Below are positions 1 to 8,834 of a DNA stretch of 9,122 nt, piece after piece. This DNA comes from Naegleria gruberi (lineage: Eukaryota), in NCBI GenBank assembly GCA_000004985.1, contig GG739046.1; one strand, written 5' to 3'. The position numbers and the translations under genes are program-made. Position 1 is the first letter of the stretch. Each line of letters begins with the position of its first letter. The notes beneath the pieces are model-generated. The model worked only from the letters and a program-made list of their open reading frames with translations. It searched no databases and was not told the DNA's origin.

Positions 1-144
1 TTGTTCTTCTTCGTGTCTNGAACAGGAGGAGGTGAAGGCATAGCAGAACTATCAGATGAATTTGAGGTGGAAGGAGTTAGAACAATGACTCGTTGCTCAC
101 TACCTGCAGAAGGTGAGCTAAGGTCTTTCGTTTTCTTGTTGTAG
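1..144 (+). CDS. 3' end of unidentified protein-coding gene, partial and running off the window start. It is open from base 1 in frame 1 and stops with TAG at 142..144. An alternative ending uses donor GT at 113 and acceptor AG at 143..144 (32-nt intron); the ORF then ends ...AEVGVGYKC* with TAA at 165..167
   Basis: Frame 1 has no stop for 47 codons from the window edge. GC content is clearly higher in 20..112 than in the very AT-rich flank from 170 to 830. An AATAAA at 166..171 follows the ORF end. No recognisable domain; the translation LFFFVSxTGGGEGIAELSDEFEVEGVRTMTRCSLPAEG is acidic and low-complexity. Confidence 0.3.
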   Translation: MFFFVSXTGGGEGIAELSDEFEVEGVRTMTRCSLPAEGELRSFVFLL

Positions 145-165
145 TTGGTGTTGGGTATAAATGCT

Positions 166-171
166 AATAAA
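166..171 (+). promoter_or_regulatory. Putative polyadenylation signal (AATAAA) for the left-edge plus-strand gene
   Basis: Canonical AATAAA overlapping or just after the candidate stop codons at 142..144 and 165..167. Confidence 0.25.
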
Positions 172-321
172 GATTTATATCCATTAAAGCAGGTCTTGGC
201 TGAATCACCTTAATGGTGAAACAGTCCCTGAGCTTTAATACCCATTAGTACAATTACTTGTTCTCAATCTTGATTTATTAATTTGCAATGTAACATGTGT
301 AAGTCCAGACTTTGATGAATT

Positions 322-369
322 TTTATAATGGTGGCTATAAATTAACTATGATAAATATTTATAATGGTG
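322..369. repeat. Short direct repeat TTTATAATGGTG at 322..333 and 358..369. A third copy of the TAATGGTGA core lies at 211..219
   Basis: Exact 12-mer read twice, 36 bp apart, in the non-coding stretch 3' of the transposase ORF. A 9-mer core TAATGGTGA is shared with 211..219. Significance is marginal in AT-rich DNA. Confidence 0.3.
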
Positions 370-813
370 ACCCTTATTAAAGTCTAAGGTAACTTCGGCG
401 GAATTGGTTTTGTTTGGTCTTTTCGGAATAATTTATAGTGGAGATTAAATAAAGATTTTTTGTTTGGTTCTATCTAAATTACTATTGCTTAACAATACTT
501 TCATTATTTCGTAAGAAAAAACAATTCATTAATTTATAAAACAAACTTTAATAAGCAATATTTGTTTAGGACCGACAAAACAAAAGGAATTTTATTTTAC
601 CTTTTCCAATATCCTTTCCAACACAACACAACCAAATGTGTATTGTTTTGATAACCCATTAACACTTTGGCGAGACGAAGTTTGGATACGGGCGAGCATG
701 TGAAATTTGAATCATTTTCAATACAACCTAAGATAATGAGAATTAGTCAAGCTGCTCTTTGTTTGGAACTATATCCGGCTCGACACTGGAAAAAAAATAA
801 AACTGTTTTTGTT

Positions 814-819
814 TTTATT
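814..819 (-). promoter_or_regulatory. Putative polyadenylation signal (AATAAA on minus strand) 16 nt downstream of the transposase stop codon
   Basis: Plus-strand TTTATT at 814..819 is AATAAA on the minus strand, directly after the TAA stop (835..837) of the transposase ORF. Confidence 0.3.
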
Positions 820-834
820 GGAAAACTTTGTTAA

Positions 835-1749
835 TTATTTGGATGGGTGTTCGCAAAGGGTATCATTATGTAAAGCACACATCCAGTAACCACATTGGGT
901 ACATTTTGTGTGCACTCTTGAGTTGTTACAGTAGTGGCAATTGTGGTAATGATGATCATTGACTTTTACATGTGTATGGGGCTGAGTCAATTTTCTCCCT
1001 ACATTATCAACTTGAGCACCACCTTTTCTTGCTAATTCAATAGCAAGCATCGAGAGGTACGAAACTAATGTTGTGTTGGGGTCGACAGCTTCCTTGTAAA
1101 AGATCCAACAATTTGTGACTGCTACTCGAAAAATTCCGAACCAAGCTGCATTTGTCCACCTATGCATCCGATGTGATCCATTGTAAAGATGGGCATACCG
1201 ATCAGACACATCCACATTAACATGGTTCTGCTCATACACTGCCTTCACACTAGGGTGTTCATTTCCTCTAGTTTTGGTTTGTTCAATAGATACTTCATTT
1301 GTTACAAAGTTTACAACTTTTTTATCAGAAAATCTAATAACAACAAAATCACCATTAGTGACCGAAACCCAATCACCTTTTTCCAATGTATACTCATTGA
1401 GTATCTGGTTACATGGTTTTCCAAGTCGATTACTCATGCAGTTCATTGTGAAACGAAATCCCATTAAATTCAAAACTGCAGCCGTCTTGTAGTGCCCGAA
1501 GTAAGAATCAACACAAATACTATAATTTCTGGATGGTAGGGCTTGTACAAAATCCCAGACAAGTATATGGACAGGTGGTTGATGACCACAGTATGGCCAA
1601 AGACGATACACGAACCATTTACTATCTGACATTAAATAAAGCTTCACACCAGTGTTAGTGGGTTTTCCTTTAATGTGTTGTTTAAAGCGATACCTACCAT
1701 CAAATTCTATCAATGTTTCATCGACAGCAATTCTTCGGAAGGATCCAAA
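835..1749 (-). CDS. piggyBac-family transposase (DDE_Tnp_1_7), C-terminal ~300 aa including stop. An in-frame TGA at 1750..1752 and a frame change upstream split it from the next segment
   Basis: The translation aligns from memory with Trichoplusia ni piggyBac transposase. RRIAVDETLIEFDGRYRFKQHIKGKPTNTGVKLYLMSDS matches HLTIDEQLLGFRGRCPFRMYIPNKPSKYGIKILMMCDS. ICVDSYFGH matches ITCDNWFTS, the 2nd catalytic Asp, encoded at 1507..1509. QNHVNVDVSDRY matches NQTKGGVDTLDQM, the 3rd catalytic Asp, encoded at 1210..1212. RWTNAAWFGIFRVAVTNCWIFY matches RWPMALLYGMINIACINSFIIY. The C-terminal Cys-rich domain CHYCNNSRVHTKCTQCGYWMCALHNDTLCEH (about 838..950) matches CTYCPSKIRRKANASCKKCKKVICREHNIDMC. Confidence 0.85.
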   Translation of the reverse strand, partial: FGSFRRIAVDETLIEFDGRYRFKQHIKGKPTNTGVKLYLMSDSKWFVYRLWPYCGHQPPVHILVWDFVQALPSRNYSICVDSYFGHYKTAAVLNLMGFRFTMNCMSNRLGKPCNQILNEYTLEKGDWVSVTNGDFVVIRFSDKKVVNFVTNEVSIEQTKTRGNEHPSVKAVYEQNHVNVDVSDRYAHLYNGSHRMHRWTNAAWFGIFRVAVTNCWIFYKEAVDPNTTLVSYLSMLAIELARKGGAQVDNVGRKLTQPHTHVKVNDHHYHNCHYCNNSRVHTKCTQCGYWMCALHNDTLCEHPSK

Positions 1750-1962
1750 TCACCTTGGAAATTATATTAAATATTCTTGTAAAATGATGAGGGTTTGCTC
1801 TGAAGTGTCTATTGATGTAAAGAAAGTCATCTCGGTTGTTCCAAATATTCTTGATGAATTGGTTACTGGTCAGAAGTGATGTAGAGAAGTATAAATCCAA
1901 CTCAGGAAGAGGAGCGAGCATTATTGTGATAATAGTTGCAAAATAGAGGTAAATGTCAGACA
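1721..1962 (-). CDS. piggyBac-family transposase, central segment in a frame offset by one nucleotide from the C-terminal segment. It continues 5' into the assembly gap; the N-terminus and first catalytic Asp are not visible
   Basis: The minus-strand translation reads SDIYLYFATIITIMLAPLPELDLYFSTSLLTSNQFIKNIWNNRDDFLYINRHFRANPHHFTRIFNIISKVIWILPKNCCR*. It aligns with piggyBac EDEIYAFFGILVMTAV...SRDRFDFLIRCLRMDD...FTPVRKIWDLFIHQCIQNY. The reading frame switches to that of 835..1749 within about 1725..1745, so as assembled the gene carries one 1-nt indel. Confidence 0.7.
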
Positions 1963-4900
1963 NNNNNNNNNNNNNNNNNNNNNNNNNNNNNNNNNNNNNN
2001 NNNNNNNNNNNNNNNNNNNNNNNNNNNNNNNNNNNNNNNNNNNNNNNNNNNNNNNNNNNNNNNNNNNNNNNNNNNNNNNNNNNNNNNNNNNNNNNNNNNN
2101 NNNNNNNNNNNNNNNNNNNNNNNNNNNNNNNNNNNNNNNNNNNNNNNNNNNNNNNNNNNNNNNNNNNNNNNNNNNNNNNNNNNNNNNNNNNNNNNNNNNN
2201 NNNNNNNNNNNNNNNNNNNNNNNNNNNNNNNNNNNNNNNNNNNNNNNNNNNNNNNNNNNNNNNNNNNNNNNNNNNNNNNNNNNNNNNNNNNNNNNNNNNN
2301 NNNNNNNNNNNNNNNNNNNNNNNNNNNNNNNNNNNNNNNNNNNNNNNNNNNNNNNNNNNNNNNNNNNNNNNNNNNNNNNNNNNNNNNNNNNNNNNNNNNN
2401 NNNNNNNNNNNNNNNNNNNNNNNNNNNNNNNNNNNNNNNNNNNNNNNNNNNNNNNNNNNNNNNNNNNNNNNNNNNNNNNNNNNNNNNNNNNNNNNNNNNN
2501 NNNNNNNNNNNNNNNNNNNNNNNNNNNNNNNNNNNNNNNNNNNNNNNNNNNNNNNNNNNNNNNNNNNNNNNNNNNNNNNNNNNNNNNNNNNNNNNNNNNN
2601 NNNNNNNNNNNNNNNNNNNNNNNNNNNNNNNNNNNNNNNNNNNNNNNNNNNNNNNNNNNNNNNNNNNNNNNNNNNNNNNNNNNNNNNNNNNNNNNNNNNN
2701 NNNNNNNNNNNNNNNNNNNNNNNNNNNNNNNNNNNNNNNNNNNNNNNNNNNNNNNNNNNNNNNNNNNNNNNNNNNNNNNNNNNNNNNNNNNNNNNNNNNN
2801 NNNNNNNNNNNNNNNNNNNNNNNNNNNNNNNNNNNNNNNNNNNNNNNNNNNNNNNNNNNNNNNNNNNNNNNNNNNNNNNNNNNNNNNNNNNNNNNNNNNN
2901 NNNNNNNNNNNNNNNNNNNNNNNNNNNNNNNNNNNNNNNNNNNNNNNNNNNNNNNNNNNNNNNNNNNNNNNNNNNNNNNNNNNNNNNNNNNNNNNNNNNN
3001 NNNNNNNNNNNNNNNNNNNNNNNNNNNNNNNNNNNNNNNNNNNNNNNNNNNNNNNNNNNNNNNNNNNNNNNNNNNNNNNNNNNNNNNNNNNNNNNNNNNN
3101 NNNNNNNNNNNNNNNNNNNNNNNNNNNNNNNNNNNNNNNNNNNNNNNNNNNNNNNNNNNNNNNNNNNNNNNNNNNNNNNNNNNNNNNNNNNNNNNNNNNN
3201 NNNNNNNNNNNNNNNNNNNNNNNNNNNNNNNNNNNNNNNNNNNNNNNNNNNNNNNNNNNNNNNNNNNNNNNNNNNNNNNNNNNNNNNNNNNNNNNNNNNN
3301 NNNNNNNNNNNNNNNNNNNNNNNNNNNNNNNNNNNNNNNNNNNNNNNNNNNNNNNNNNNNNNNNNNNNNNNNNNNNNNNNNNNNNNNNNNNNNNNNNNNN
3401 NNNNNNNNNNNNNNNNNNNNNNNNNNNNNNNNNNNNNNNNNNNNNNNNNNNNNNNNNNNNNNNNNNNNNNNNNNNNNNNNNNNNNNNNNNNNNNNNNNNN
3501 NNNNNNNNNNNNNNNNNNNNNNNNNNNNNNNNNNNNNNNNNNNNNNNNNNNNNNNNNNNNNNNNNNNNNNNNNNNNNNNNNNNNNNNNNNNNNNNNNNNN
3601 NNNNNNNNNNNNNNNNNNNNNNNNNNNNNNNNNNNNNNNNNNNNNNNNNNNNNNNNNNNNNNNNNNNNNNNNNNNNNNNNNNNNNNNNNNNNNNNNNNNN
3701 NNNNNNNNNNNNNNNNNNNNNNNNNNNNNNNNNNNNNNNNNNNNNNNNNNNNNNNNNNNNNNNNNNNNNNNNNNNNNNNNNNNNNNNNNNNNNNNNNNNN
3801 NNNNNNNNNNNNNNNNNNNNNNNNNNNNNNNNNNNNNNNNNNNNNNNNNNNNNNNNNNNNNNNNNNNNNNNNNNNNNNNNNNNNNNNNNNNNNNNNNNNN
3901 NNNNNNNNNNNNNNNNNNNNNNNNNNNNNNNNNNNNNNNNNNNNNNNNNNNNNNNNNNNNNNNNNNNNNNNNNNNNNNNNNNNNNNNNNNNNNNNNNNNN
4001 NNNNNNNNNNNNNNNNNNNNNNNNNNNNNNNNNNNNNNNNNNNNNNNNNNNNNNNNNNNNNNNNNNNNNNNNNNNNNNNNNNNNNNNNNNNNNNNNNNNN
4101 NNNNNNNNNNNNNNNNNNNNNNNNNNNNNNNNNNNNNNNNNNNNNNNNNNNNNNNNNNNNNNNNNNNNNNNNNNNNNNNNNNNNNNNNNNNNNNNNNNNN
4201 NNNNNNNNNNNNNNNNNNNNNNNNNNNNNNNNNNNNNNNNNNNNNNNNNNNNNNNNNNNNNNNNNNNNNNNNNNNNNNNNNNNNNNNNNNNNNNNNNNNN
4301 NNNNNNNNNNNNNNNNNNNNNNNNNNNNNNNNNNNNNNNNNNNNNNNNNNNNNNNNNNNNNNNNNNNNNNNNNNNNNNNNNNNNNNNNNNNNNNNNNNNN
4401 NNNNNNNNNNNNNNNNNNNNNNNNNNNNNNNNNNNNNNNNNNNNNNNNNNNNNNNNNNNNNNNNNNNNNNNNNNNNNNNNNNNNNNNNNNNNNNNNNNNN
4501 NNNNNNNNNNNNNNNNNNNNNNNNNNNNNNNNNNNNNNNNNNNNNNNNNNNNNNNNNNNNNNNNNNNNNNNNNNNNNNNNNNNNNNNNNNNNNNNNNNNN
4601 NNNNNNNNNNNNNNNNNNNNNNNNNNNNNNNNNNNNNNNNNNNNNNNNNNNNNNNNNNNNNNNNNNNNNNNNNNNNNNNNNNNNNNNNNNNNNNNNNNNN
4701 NNNNNNNNNNNNNNNNNNNNNNNNNNNNNNNNNNNNNNNNNNNNNNNNNNNNNNNNNNNNNNNNNNNNNNNNNNNNNNNNNNNNNNNNNNNNNNNNNNNN
4801 NNNNNNNNNNNNNNNNNNNNNNNNNNNNNNNNNNNNNNNNNNNNNNNNNNNNNNNNNNNNNNNNNNNNNNNNNNNNNNNNNNNNNNNNNNNNNNNNNNNN

Positions 4901-6498
4901 NNNNNNNNNNNNNNNNNNNNNNNNNNNNNNNNNNNNNNNNNNNNNNNNNNNNNNNNNNNNNNNNNNNNNNNNNNNNNNNNNNNNNNNNNNNNNNNNNNNN
5001 NNNNNNNNNNNNNNNNNNNNNNNNNNNNNNNNNNNNNNNNNNNNNNNNNNNNNNNNNNNNNNNNNNNNNNNNNNNNNNNNNNNNNNNNNNNNNNNNNNNN
5101 NNNNNNNNNNNNNNNNNNNNNNNNNNNNNNNNNNNNNNNNNNNNNNNNNNNNNNNNNNNNNNNNNNNNNNNNNNNNNNNNNNNNNNNNNNNNNNNNNNNN
5201 NNNNNNNNNNNNNNNNNNNNNNNNNNNNNNNNNNNNNNNNNNNNNNNNNNNNNNNNNNNNNNNNNNNNNNNNNNNNNNNNNNNNNNNNNNNNNNNNNNNN
5301 NNNNNNNNNNNNNNNNNNNNNNNNNNNNNNNNNNNNNNNNNNNNNNNNNNNNNNNNNNNNNNNNNNNNNNNNNNNNNNNNNNNNNNNNNNNNNNNNNNNN
5401 NNNNNNNNNNNNNNNNNNNNNNNNNNNNNNNNNNNNNNNNNNNNNNNNNNNNNNNNNNNNNNNNNNNNNNNNNNNNNNNNNNNNNNNNNNNNNNNNNNNN
5501 NNNNNNNNNNNNNNNNNNNNNNNNNNNNNNNNNNNNNNNNNNNNNNNNNNNNNNNNNNNNNNNNNNNNNNNNNNNNNNNNNNNNNNNNNNNNNNNNNNNN
5601 NNNNNNNNNNNNNNNNNNNNNNNNNNNNNNNNNNNNNNNNNNNNNNNNNNNNNNNNNNNNNNNNNNNNNNNNNNNNNNNNNNNNNNNNNNNNNNNNNNNN
5701 NNNNNNNNNNNNNNNNNNNNNNNNNNNNNNNNNNNNNNNNNNNNNNNNNNNNNNNNNNNNNNNNNNNNNNNNNNNNNNNNNNNNNNNNNNNNNNNNNNNN
5801 NNNNNNNNNNNNNNNNNNNNNNNNNNNNNNNNNNNNNNNNNNNNNNNNNNNNNNNNNNNNNNNNNNNNNNNNNNNNNNNNNNNNNNNNNNNNNNNNNNNN
5901 NNNNNNNNNNNNNNNNNNNNNNNNNNNNNNNNNNNNNNNNNNNNNNNNNNNNNNNNNNNNNNNNNNNNNNNNNNNNNNNNNNNNNNNNNNNNNNNNNNNN
6001 NNNNNNNNNNNNNNNNNNNNNNNNNNNNNNNNNNNNNNNNNNNNNNNNNNNNNNNNNNNNNNNNNNNNNNNNNNNNNNNNNNNNNNNNNNNNNNNNNNNN
6101 NNNNNNNNNNNNNNNNNNNNNNNNNNNNNNNNNNNNNNNNNNNNNNNNNNNNNNNNNNNNNNNNNNNNNNNNNNNNNNNNNNNNNNNNNNNNNNNNNNNN
6201 NNNNNNNNNNNNNNNNNNNNNNNNNNNNNNNNNNNNNNNNNNNNNNNNNNNNNNNNNNNNNNNNNNNNNNNNNNNNNNNNNNNNNNNNNNNNNNNNNNNN
6301 NNNNNNNNNNNNNNNNNNNNNNNNNNNNNNNNNNNNNNNNNNNNNNNNNNNNNNNNNNNNNNNNNNNNNNNNNNNNNNNNNNNNNNNNNNNNNNNNNNNN
6401 NNNNNNNNNNNNNNNNNNNNNNNNNNNNNNNNNNNNNNNNNNNNNNNNNNNNNNNNNNNNNNNNNNNNNNNNNNNNNNNNNNNNNNNNNNNNNNNNNN
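1963..6498. other. Assembly gap (4,536 N)
   Basis: Continuous run of n. The two long X-filled ORFs in the track (1718..6574 minus, 1936..6729 plus) are artefacts of translating N. Confidence 0.99.
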
Positions 6499-6505
6499 GG
6501 GTTAA
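6499..6505. repeat. Candidate piggyBac terminal trinucleotide GGG (6499..6501) plus TTAA target site (6502..6505) at the right gap edge
   Basis: piggyBac elements insert at TTAA, and their termini read CCC.../...GGG. These are the first seven bases after the N run. Confidence 0.35.
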
Positions 6506-6560
6506 AGATACCAACACATCTTTTGGCATTACCTCAAAGTCAATTTCGTCTTTCAACCAT

Positions 6561-7286
6561 TTATAAAACCTCAATATTGAAAGGGTATCTTTTTACAATT
6601 TCTTTCATTAACTGTGTTTCAGTCATCGAATATTTCAAGGTTTTTAAATTTTTGCTCTTTGATAAGCATTTTCTCAATATATCAATATCATCTAATAAAC
6701 TTTCTCCAACAAACATAATAGTTCCATAGTTTTTCCCTAAAGATTTCATCACTATTTCCTTATCATTTCTAATATCTCTCTTACAATGCTGAAGAGAATT
6801 AGGTTTAAACTCAAGAGATGATGAAATTATTTCTGAATCAATAGTACATAAAGCAAACTTTAGAGCATCTCTATAATATTTAACAGCTTTAGAAACAAAG
6901 GTCTTTGCTTTCCACAAATCACCTTGGAAAAAAATCTTTCCCTTCTTATTCCTCAAAACTTGAATCATAAAATCCTCATCCTTTTCAAATGAGTTACCAT
7001 ATATAAAGCCGCAATCTCTCATGACATATCCTAATAAAAATTGTCTTTTCATTTCCAATGTAGGAATGGAATTAAATAATTCAGTAACACGTTTCCTTTT
7101 CATCATTTTAGAATGATGAATAATTATTAAATATTTCCAATATTCCTTCAAGTTTTGTAAAGTTTCTTCTCTTTTCTTGTTCATTGTATTCCGCAGCATA
7201 TTATACATGATGGGGGTGTTGTTTTGTCCACATTTGTATCCATCTAAAATTATCGTAACTGGTTCAGCATCTTCGTGTGATGACAT
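6561..7286 (-). CDS. DUF4116-like repeat protein, 241 aa from ATG at 7286..7284 to TAA at 6563..6561
   Basis: Open frame of 269 codons. The first ATG gives MSSHEDAEPVTIILDGYKC.... At least three repeats fit the DUF4116 consensus as I recall it (..ALQYASEELKNDKEFVLEAVKQNG.AL..): FEKDEDFMIQVLRNKKGKIFF, then DLWKAKTFVSKAVKYYRDALKFA, then SLQHCKRDIRNDKEIVMKSLGKNYGTIMFVGESLLDDIDILRKCL. An in-frame stop upstream at 7398..7400 and no good acceptor downstream of it indicate a single-exon CDS. Confidence 0.6.
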   Translation of the reverse strand: MSSHEDAEPVTIILDGYKCGQNNTPIMYNMLRNTMNKKREETLQNLKEYWKYLIIIHHSKMMKRKRVTELFNSIPTLEMKRQFLLGYVMRDCGFIYGNSFEKDEDFMIQVLRNKKGKIFFQGDLWKAKTFVSKAVKYYRDALKFALCTIDSEIISSSLEFKPNSLQHCKRDIRNDKEIVMKSLGKNYGTIMFVGESLLDDIDILRKCLSKSKNLKTLKYSMTETQLMKEIVKRYPFNIEVL

Positions 7287-7457
7287 TTTTTTATGGTTTT
7301 CATGTAAATGAACTTGCACAAGTTGAATTGTTGTGAGATTGTGAACAATAGATATTTCTCTGTTTTGCACACTTTGATTTGTTGGATTTTGTGAAAATTA
7401 ACTTGTCGAGATGATCAACTTTATTGCTCTGGAGAAAGAAACATGGACTATTCCTTA

Positions 7458-7679: not shown

Positions 7680-7898
7680 TTTTTTTAATGCGATACGAAA
7701 TGGCAGTTCTTAGTATGTAACGAGATGATCTAAGGTAGAACTCTTTCTTCATAAAAGCTCTCTGAGCATGGGTGAATAGATAGTACAACAATAGGTACGA
7801 AGTAGGATAGTTTGGATTTTTGGATTTTCAAATTCTTGCTTGGAGTTTGGCAAAGTGTTGAATATTGGTGAAAGTAAAATTATATACATTTATAATAT

Positions 7899-8419
7899 TT
7901 AGTTAATACCCAACAATTTCTTTACATATGAATAGAGATCAAGTAATTGAGAACACAATTGAGAATTGGCCATCTTTTTAACAAAATCTGGTATCCATCC
8001 TATAATTACACATTGTAAATATTTCAATATTTGAAATGACTTACCCTTAACATCAGTTTGAATAACATATGTTACATGACAACTAGTAGCAGTTGTTTCG
8101 TTTGGTTTCTTAACTGGTTTAATGACATAACCAGAAACTAACAAATCTCCTCTAACATATCCTGATTGTTCTGGATACAATGCATTATCTACAACACTCT
8201 TTTGACATAAAACAATTGATCCATCTTCTCTCTTTTTCAATCTTCTACAAATCAAATAATCTCTCTTTGAAACACCAAATGCAGGTGATTTATGGGAGTG
8301 AACAACAACTTCAATATCCTCAACCTTTTTCAATGATTTAATTTCGGAGAGGGAAGTACTCAATTTTAAAACATGATTACTATCCCACAATACATTGGCA
8401 ACTTGTTCAGGTGTCAATC
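7899..8419 (-). CDS. START domain protein, exon 3 of 3 including the TAA stop at 7901..7899. Acceptor aattag|GA with AG at 8421..8420
   Basis: The exon encodes (G)LTPEQVANVLWDSNHVLKL...DYLICRRLKKREDGSIVLCQKSVVDNALYPEQSGYVRGDLLVSGYVIKPV...TSCHVTYVIQTDVKGKSFQILKYLQCVIIGWIPDFVKKMANSQ. It matches STARD10/PCTP motifs YVRGENGPGGFIV and C.ITY..Q.DPKGSLPK.V.N......APK.MKKM. Intron 2 is 137 nt (8420..8556). The spliced product is 233 aa. Confidence 0.8.
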
Positions 8420-8556
8420 CTAATTATTAATAAATTATTTAAAGTAATTTTCATGATGATCAATAATAATTTAATCATGAAATAAATTATTCATAAACAT
8501 CATGTGGGACATCATGTGGATAAAGGTCAAGATATTAGAATCATAAATCTACATAC

Positions 8557-8614
8557 CAGACATTAAGAAGGTAACCTTGTAAGATCCAGTATGTGGTGGA
8601 GGCTCAGCAAATTC
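8557..8614 (-). CDS. START domain protein, exon 2 of 3 (58 nt). Acceptor ttgcttgtag|G with AG at 8616..8615; donor CTG|gtatgt with GT at 8556..8555
   Basis: The exon encodes EFAEPPPHTGSYKVTFLMS plus one nucleotide. It joins exon 3 through a Gly codon. TGSYKVTFLMSGLTPEQVANVLWDSNH aligns with PCTP TGLYEYKVFGVLEDCSPTLLADIYMDSDY and STARD10 ...YDVLHDIEYRKKWDSNV. Intron 1 is 97 nt (8615..8711). Confidence 0.6.
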
Positions 8615-8711
8615 CTACAAGCAATAAAATTGATGATCAAATTGTTGTTCATTAAATATTATTTCAAAAATTCCACTTTTTACTATTTATCAATCAATAC
8701 TATAAACCTAC

Positions 8712-8834
8712 TGCTGTACATCCATTCTTTTCATCAATCTTTTGCCAAACCTTTCCGGTTGGATTCTTACTATCCGCCAATTCAATTACACGTGATTCAG
8801 CAATATTAATTTCATCAGCAATATTGGATGTCAT
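8712..8834 (-). CDS. START (StAR-related lipid transfer) domain protein, exon 1 of 3. ATG at 8834..8832; donor GCA|gtaggt with GT at 8711..8710
   Basis: The exon encodes MTSNIADEINIAESRVIELADSKNPTGKVWQKIDEKNGCTA. The WQKIDEKNG stretch resembles the N-terminal W..L.E..G of the PCTP/STARD10 START domain. A strong donor gtaggt follows. The exon is in phase 0. Confidence 0.65.

Follow-up and report, generated by a model that had tools for sequence, protein, structure and literature searches.

A probable piggyBac-like transposon copy in Naegleria gruberi, with a frame break and a 5´ side cut by an assembly gap

The window, by which we mean the whole 9,122-nucleotide stretch of Naegleria gruberi DNA that was analysed (contig GG739046.1), most probably contains an autonomous piggyBac-like DNA transposon copy that is young and is cut on its 5´ side by an assembly gap. 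We assign a probability of about 0.8 to this reading, in which the copy is a selfish element and not a host gene. The minus strand at 835..1962 encodes a predicted transposase of the piggyBac superfamily, about 375 codons of which are visible, in two frames, between the gap edge (1962) and a TAA stop. The following features define this region:

1963..6498, no strand: assembly gap of 4536 N in a draft eukaryotic scaffold.
1745..1960, minus strand: 72 visible codons from the N-terminal side of the transposase (SDIYLYF...ISKVIW), stop-free from the gap edge on and in a frame that differs from that of the core.
1729..1744, minus strand: frame break, 16 nt against 18 nt (6 codons) in relatives, located from the frames and the protein alignment.
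838..1728, minus strand: catalytic core and C-terminal region in an uninterrupted frame (AVDET...EHPSK), identified with Pfam, phmmer and AlphaFold2/Foldseek.
835-837, minus strand: TAA stop codon of the transposase ORF, from the ORF translation.

The core frame stays open from 1749 to the TAA at 835-837 (304 codons, 838..1749), and the second frame is open from 1960 to 1721. None of 20,000 shuffles remained open over a length of 304 codons, and the analytic probability of such openness is 6e-10. The 304 aa matched the Pfam family DDE_Tnp_1_7 (PF13843) with E=5.3e-22 and 79 bits over profile positions 128-349 of 349, far above the gathering cut-off of 22.4 bits; this is the profile search that a preliminary description of the region had proposed as a check. 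A phmmer search against all PDB chains matched only T. ni piggyBac (6x67/6x68, E=8.6e-10) and piggyBat (9c0f, E=6.5e-9). The AlphaFold2 model of 303 aa (mean pLDDT 75, pTM 0.68) was closest in Foldseek to 6x67_C (E=4e-14, TMq 0.65), followed by 9c0f_C (E 2e-13) and then by the Tn5 transposase; the model and the PDB matches agree on an RNase-H-like fold with the piggyBac insertion domain. An exhaustive HMMER search of 1.84 billion representative proteins returned 1778 matches at E<=1e-3, which is expected for a large superfamily. Among the annotated N. gruberi proteins, none resembles the window ORF and no close paralogue was found, and the protein collection contains no entry identical to the ORF products.

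Alignment to the full-length T. ni piggyBac revealed that all three residues of the DDD triad are present at the D268, D346 and D447 positions. The codons, each placed by residue alignment to 6x67, are the following:

1720..1722, minus strand: first catalytic Asp (equivalent to T. ni piggyBac D268), IAVDET against LTIDEQ.
1507..1509, minus strand: second catalytic Asp (equivalent to D346), ICVDSYF against ITCDNWF.
1210..1212, minus strand: third catalytic Asp (equivalent to D447), VNVDVSD against GGVDTLD.
1201-1203, minus strand: D450 equivalent, from the same VNVDVSD/GGVDTLD alignment.

The preliminary description had named the second and third Asp codons correctly. It had placed the first in the gap, where it does not lie: that codon is visible and aligns to D268. 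Its family call, a piggyBac transposase, is borne out by the PF13843 match, the PDB matches 6x67 and 9c0f and the DDD triad.

Downstream of the catalytic core, the protein ends in a Cys/His array:

847..939, minus strand: C-terminal Cys/His array, presumed to be a cross-brace zinc-binding domain from its ligand pattern and alignment columns.

The array, which reads C-x2-C-x8-C-x2-C-x4-C-x2-H-x4-C-x-H, lies within the last 31 residues and contains eight ligands in the expected order (C270, C273, C282, C285, C290, H293, C298 and H300 in the 303-aa translation). C273, C282 and C285 are invariant, and C270 is nearly invariant, across 10 aligned relatives, which include the insect PGBD4-like protein P0175 that carries PF13842. 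A complete Cys-rich domain, as had been described, is supported by the ligand pattern and the four conserved Cys columns, but PF13842 gave no match to the window tail even at E<=10 (and none on the intact N. lovaniensis protein either), and the Cys/His tail was modelled by AlphaFold2 at pLDDT<50.

The frame break separates these domains from the visible N-terminal part. The earlier statement that some 380 aa align along their whole length to piggyBac transposase holds in that homology lies on both sides, but the two sides are in two frames, with the break at 1729-1744. The frame upstream of 1745 (SDIYLYFATIITIMLAPLPELDLYFS...NPHHFTRIFNIISKVIW, 1960-1745) aligns to the N. lovaniensis proteins P0003 and P0157 and to the metagenomic protein P0001. 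Between the Trp codon at 1745-1747 and the Ala codon (of AVDET) at 1726-1728 there are 16 nt, where all four relatives that align gap-free across the stretch have six codons, so that two nucleotides are missing or, equivalently, one is extra. The transposase ORF is interrupted as assembled, and because two nucleotides are missing between these codons, the assembled copy cannot, on its predicted frames, make the protein. The best repair puts back two single G's in GG runs (tgg[g]at and ttg[g]ct) and yields VIW-DPSEEL-AVDET. Both the Trp and the Pro of this stretch (W72 and P74) are invariant in the alignment, and only the two-G repair retains the Pro. The frame-repaired protein matched PF13843 with 92.8 bits (E=3.5e-26) in a single stretch over profile positions 39-349, and both frames therefore belong to one domain. 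An intron was rejected as the cause of the frame change since the 16 nt between conserved codons leave no room for it. A ciliate-type genetic code, raised by the TAA stop and by the domestication of piggyBac in ciliates, was also rejected, as the host belongs to Naegleria and the relatives terminate at the same position.

Only 17 nt separate the two indels of the best repair, which lie about 220 nt from the contig end in 1.1 kb that is otherwise free of faults, and they look like base-calling errors. A tentative alternative, which we take seriously while placing it below even odds, is that the copy is intact and potentially active, with the 2-nt deficit being an assembly or base-calling artefact in which two G's were dropped from GG runs. 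The repair requires two separate single-G losses, and the chance that two real independent indels fall so close together in 1.1 kb is only about 3% (estimate, 2x17/1128), while the remaining part of the 1125 nt is defect-free. The assembly contains low-quality positions, as the single ambiguous 'n' at position 19 of the window shows, in addition to the large gap, and the N. lovaniensis sister elements are evidently active, as judged from 100% identical copies. However, a real single 2-nt deletion or 1-nt insertion is more parsimonious, although the invariant Pro is then lost, and the ORF has no N. gruberi protein model.

No stop codon occurs in the 375 visible codons. A stop would arise from 4.8% of the single substitutions possible across the 1125 coding nt, and the probability of finding no stop is 0.58 at 1%, 0.07 at 5% and 0.005 at 10% neutral divergence. 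Because a stop-free frame is improbable at the higher divergences, the copy is either young or constrained. The suggestion in the preliminary description of a recently active copy is reasonable given the stop-free codons, but the 2-nt deficit means that the copy is not intact as assembled. The frame break and the unseen 5´ part would also suit a long-dead copy left by an ancient invasion of piggyBac; we regard such a relic as very improbable, given that 375 codons are stop-free (P<0.005 at >=10% neutral divergence) and that the catalytic and zinc-ligand residues are all retained. The simplest reading is either that the copy was recently inserted and is starting to decay or that it is intact and its sequence contains local errors.

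The nearest proteins are annotated in N. lovaniensis as 'PiggyBac transposable element-derived protein domain-containing' and share 54-56% identity with the window protein over 375 aa. They form two 90% clusters with three and five members, which amounts to at least eight annotated protein copies. RepeatMasker counts 29 PiggyBac fragments in N. lovaniensis, equal to 0.08% of its genome (PMC6125883). With a length of 1873 bp, the N. lovaniensis element is bounded by terminal inverted repeats of the sequence CCTCTACGCGACGG. Three of its copies were examined, at the following loci:

L005, 3759-5631: N. lovaniensis piggyBac copy.
L007, 2759-4631: N. lovaniensis piggyBac copy.
L004, 3759-5596: N. 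lovaniensis piggyBac copy.

Two of the three are 100% identical, the third is 97.9% identical, and their flanks are unrelated. Because near-identical copies sit in unrelated flanks, this family has, by all appearances, moved very recently.

Decayed and aberrant homologues are also found in N. lovaniensis. The 171-aa hypothetical protein C9374_003429 (locus L001, 10001-10516 on PYSW02000018.1) is an internally deleted piggyBac remnant: its N-terminal part and second Asp are retained, but IHET stands at the position of the first Asp. Some 200 nt further downstream, a different frame may preserve a piece of the Cys-rich tail (~10704-10769; tblastn E=1.0, not significant), and no convincing inverted repeats were found around the remnant. 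In P0158 (C9374_003666, 1338 aa), the transposase is broken off inside the Cys-rich tail and fused to about 840 unrelated residues, which is either an annotation read-through into the neighbouring gene or a chimeric gene. A metagenome scan for closer relatives with both ends returned only two relatives, at 30-31% identity.

Domesticated piggyBac genes occur in other protists, for example ciliates. The preliminary description had offered a domesticated PGBD-like gene as an alternative to a recently active copy, that is, a host gene derived from a piggyBac transposase; these precedents, the conserved DDD triad and Cys/His array and the open 304-codon core would all suit such a gene. The nearest relatives, however, are multicopy elements that bear terminal inverted repeats, the frame is broken as assembled, and the annotated N. 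gruberi proteins include no match. An orthologue at the same locus is absent in N. fowleri, whose corresponding locus (L006) shares only a START-domain gene with the window and has no piggyBac-like ORF nearby, and in N. lovaniensis the homologues have unrelated surroundings. At a different locus, the decayed internal-deletion remnant was the only further Naegleria homologue found. Domestication is the least probable of the readings weighed here and can hardly be entertained; a selfish transposon copy remains our preferred reading.

The START-domain gene identifies the other side of the gap:

7899-8834, minus strand: NAEGRDRAFT_76605, START-domain gene, complete, four exons, exact protein match.

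All 218 aa of the NAEGRDRAFT_76605 protein are encoded exactly by the window once the introns are removed. When the minus-strand ORF at 7899-8417 is read naively, it is 91% identical to the N. gruberi START-domain protein, because it then runs through an in-frame, stop-free intron of 45 nt (8000-8044). A species close to but distinct from N. gruberi, considered from the 91% match, was rejected: this intron is the whole difference, and the exons are 100% identical. Positions 1..1962 of the window are linked to the START gene only by scaffolding across the gap. The START protein is recorded twice, as EFC35737.1 and EFC41209.1, each on a contig of its own, which raises the possibility that the 9122-bp window is a small scaffold representing a duplicate or a haplotype.

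Judged from the N. lovaniensis protein P0157 (525 aa), to which the window aligns from about residue 149 onwards, roughly 148 codons of the N-terminus should lie within the gap at 1963..6498, along with the 5´ UTR and the 5´ terminal inverted repeat. The gap, 4.5 kb long and beside a transposon copy, is plausibly repeat-induced.

Two further coding stretches were observed in the window. A 269-aa ORF with DUF4116 repeats (Pfam E=6e-14) is located at 6499-7370 on the minus strand, between the gap and the START gene and on the same strand as the transposase; the part at 6561-7370 is in one frame, the frame changes at 6561-6574 (intron or frameshift), and the ORF then runs into the gap. At the left edge, a short open stretch on the plus strand (1-120) ends at a GT (gaag followed by gtgagc) and may represent an exon of a gene on that strand.

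Terminus-like motifs beside ATAT or TTAA are present downstream of the transposase stop. The pattern sought was a GC-rich block ending in GG and then a 4-bp A/T palindrome. The reference termini were those of the N. lovaniensis element and of L003, a decayed metagenomic relative (169-2056) whose ends are the same as those of the N. lovaniensis element; they read ATAT followed by CCTCTACG[C/A]GACGG, with T8 preceding at the 3´ end. The 3´ region and its three candidates are the following:

609..834, minus strand: 3´ non-coding part of the element with three terminus candidates, from likeness to the N. lovaniensis and L003 termini.
Candidate A, minus strand: ATAT at 771-774 and CCGGCTCGACACTGG at 775-789, adjoining an A8 run at 790-797 that reads T8 on the element strand, a feature shared with N. 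lovaniensis and L003.
Candidate B, minus strand: TTAA at 659-662 and CACTTTGGCGAGACGAAG at 663-680, with the 7-mer CGAGACG in common with the L003 terminal repeat.
Candidate C, minus strand: ATAT at 609-612 and CCTTTCCAACAC at 613-624, a terminus-like motif.

In local alignments to the termini of the relatives, none of the three candidates convincingly beats shuffles. Candidate A is located 60 nt past the stop, compared with 34-67 nt in relatives, and we rank it slightly ahead of candidate B on architecture. The TTAA at 659-662 was rejected as the sole favoured terminus after two equally good ATAT candidates were found. The 18-nt sequence of candidate B occurs once in the visible window sequence. 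Two short motifs are each repeated within 35 nt (666-698) of the otherwise AT-rich spacer that follows the transposase stop: GGCGAG at 669-674 and 691-696, and TTTGG at 666-670 and 681-685. They could serve as subterminal binding repeats should candidate B prove to be the real terminus. No convincing partner inverted repeat was found in the visible window, including the part after the gap, where a weak match at 7845-7861 is at chance level. With one copy and one side of the element visible, neither a TIR pair nor a target-site duplication is demonstrable, and the 5´ end of the element, together with the partner repeat, must lie in the gap.

The piggyBac superfamily is defined by insertion at TTAA, and this target is near-universal. 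The N. lovaniensis ends are all flanked by ATAT (ATAT, then CCTCTACGCGACGG...CCGTCGCGTAGAGG, then ATAT), with no further duplication beyond, which suggests that the lineage of the N. lovaniensis element and L003 is active and may target ATAT instead of the canonical TTAA. A metagenomic element at L002 99-1937 (JGI metagenome 3300038658, contig Ga0399987_039355) is complete, about 1.83 kb long and very AT-rich, with an intact 493-aa ORF (P0001) that is 44% identical to the window protein. Its terminal inverted repeats are 13 bp long (CCTTTAGGGGACA), and at each end the direct 4-bp flank is TTAT and not TTAA. ATAT and TTAT have been reported only in unique copies (PMC5381638). Because the N. lovaniensis and L003 ends are all flanked by ATAT and the metagenomic relative by TTAT, we also considered that the frame break in N. 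gruberi is an artefact, that the element is intact and currently mobile, and that its clade has relaxed or changed the TTAA target. We judge this combination unlikely. If true, it would provide a natural series for studying target choice by piggyBac and an endogenous vector for a protist without genetic tools.

By analogy with its family, the transposase would act in four steps. It would bind the terminal and subterminal repeats, partly through the Cys-rich tail, and its DDD site would nick the 3´ ends of the element. Hairpins would then be formed on the transposon ends and reopened, and the ends would be joined to a 4-bp target, which would be duplicated. The window appears to hold the parts that are needed for catalysis, with the N-terminus and the 5´ end missing or hidden. 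Overall, this is a routine copy of a known transposon type, and nothing supports domestication. Its value for annotation is that this stretch of N. gruberi can be recorded as an unannotated transposon copy, which extends the piggyBac record to N. gruberi; for N. lovaniensis, that record consists solely of a RepeatMasker count (PMC6125883). The wider interest lies only outside the window, in the recently active-looking N. lovaniensis sisters inserted in ATAT, which is unusual for a TTAA superfamily.

Among known systems, T. ni piggyBac (IFP2; 6x67/6x68) shares with the window protein the PF13843 domain, the D268/D346/D447 triad and the order of the Cys/His ligands, and it is the best fold match. 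In contrast, the core identity is only about 19-25%, the T. ni protein has 594 aa compared with about 525 aa in Naegleria, and the Naegleria Cys-rich tail is too divergent for PF13842. The last zinc ligand is a His spaced by x1 in the Naegleria protein and a Cys spaced by x2 in T. ni piggyBac. Human PGBD1-5 and the ciliate PiggyMac/TPB2 belong to the same catalytic-domain family, and the DDD triad is kept in some of them; they are single-copy host genes that lack terminal inverted repeats and are conserved at fixed loci, whereas the window copy has no synteny with N. fowleri. The closest relatives are the piggyBac proteins of N. lovaniensis, C9374_014382/P0157 (525 aa), C9374_010529/P0009 and C9374_014391/P0173, from the same host genus. 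They have the same domain order, the DDD triad and the same spacing of the first five zinc ligands (C-x2-C-x8-C-x2-C-x4-C), but their last three zinc ligands differ from those of the window protein, and they form a separate sub-lineage with no DNA-level similarity to the window. Compared with the window copy, which is truncated and frame-broken and whose termini are only candidates, the N. lovaniensis copies are complete (1873 bp), with defined terminal inverted repeats and ATAT on both sides.
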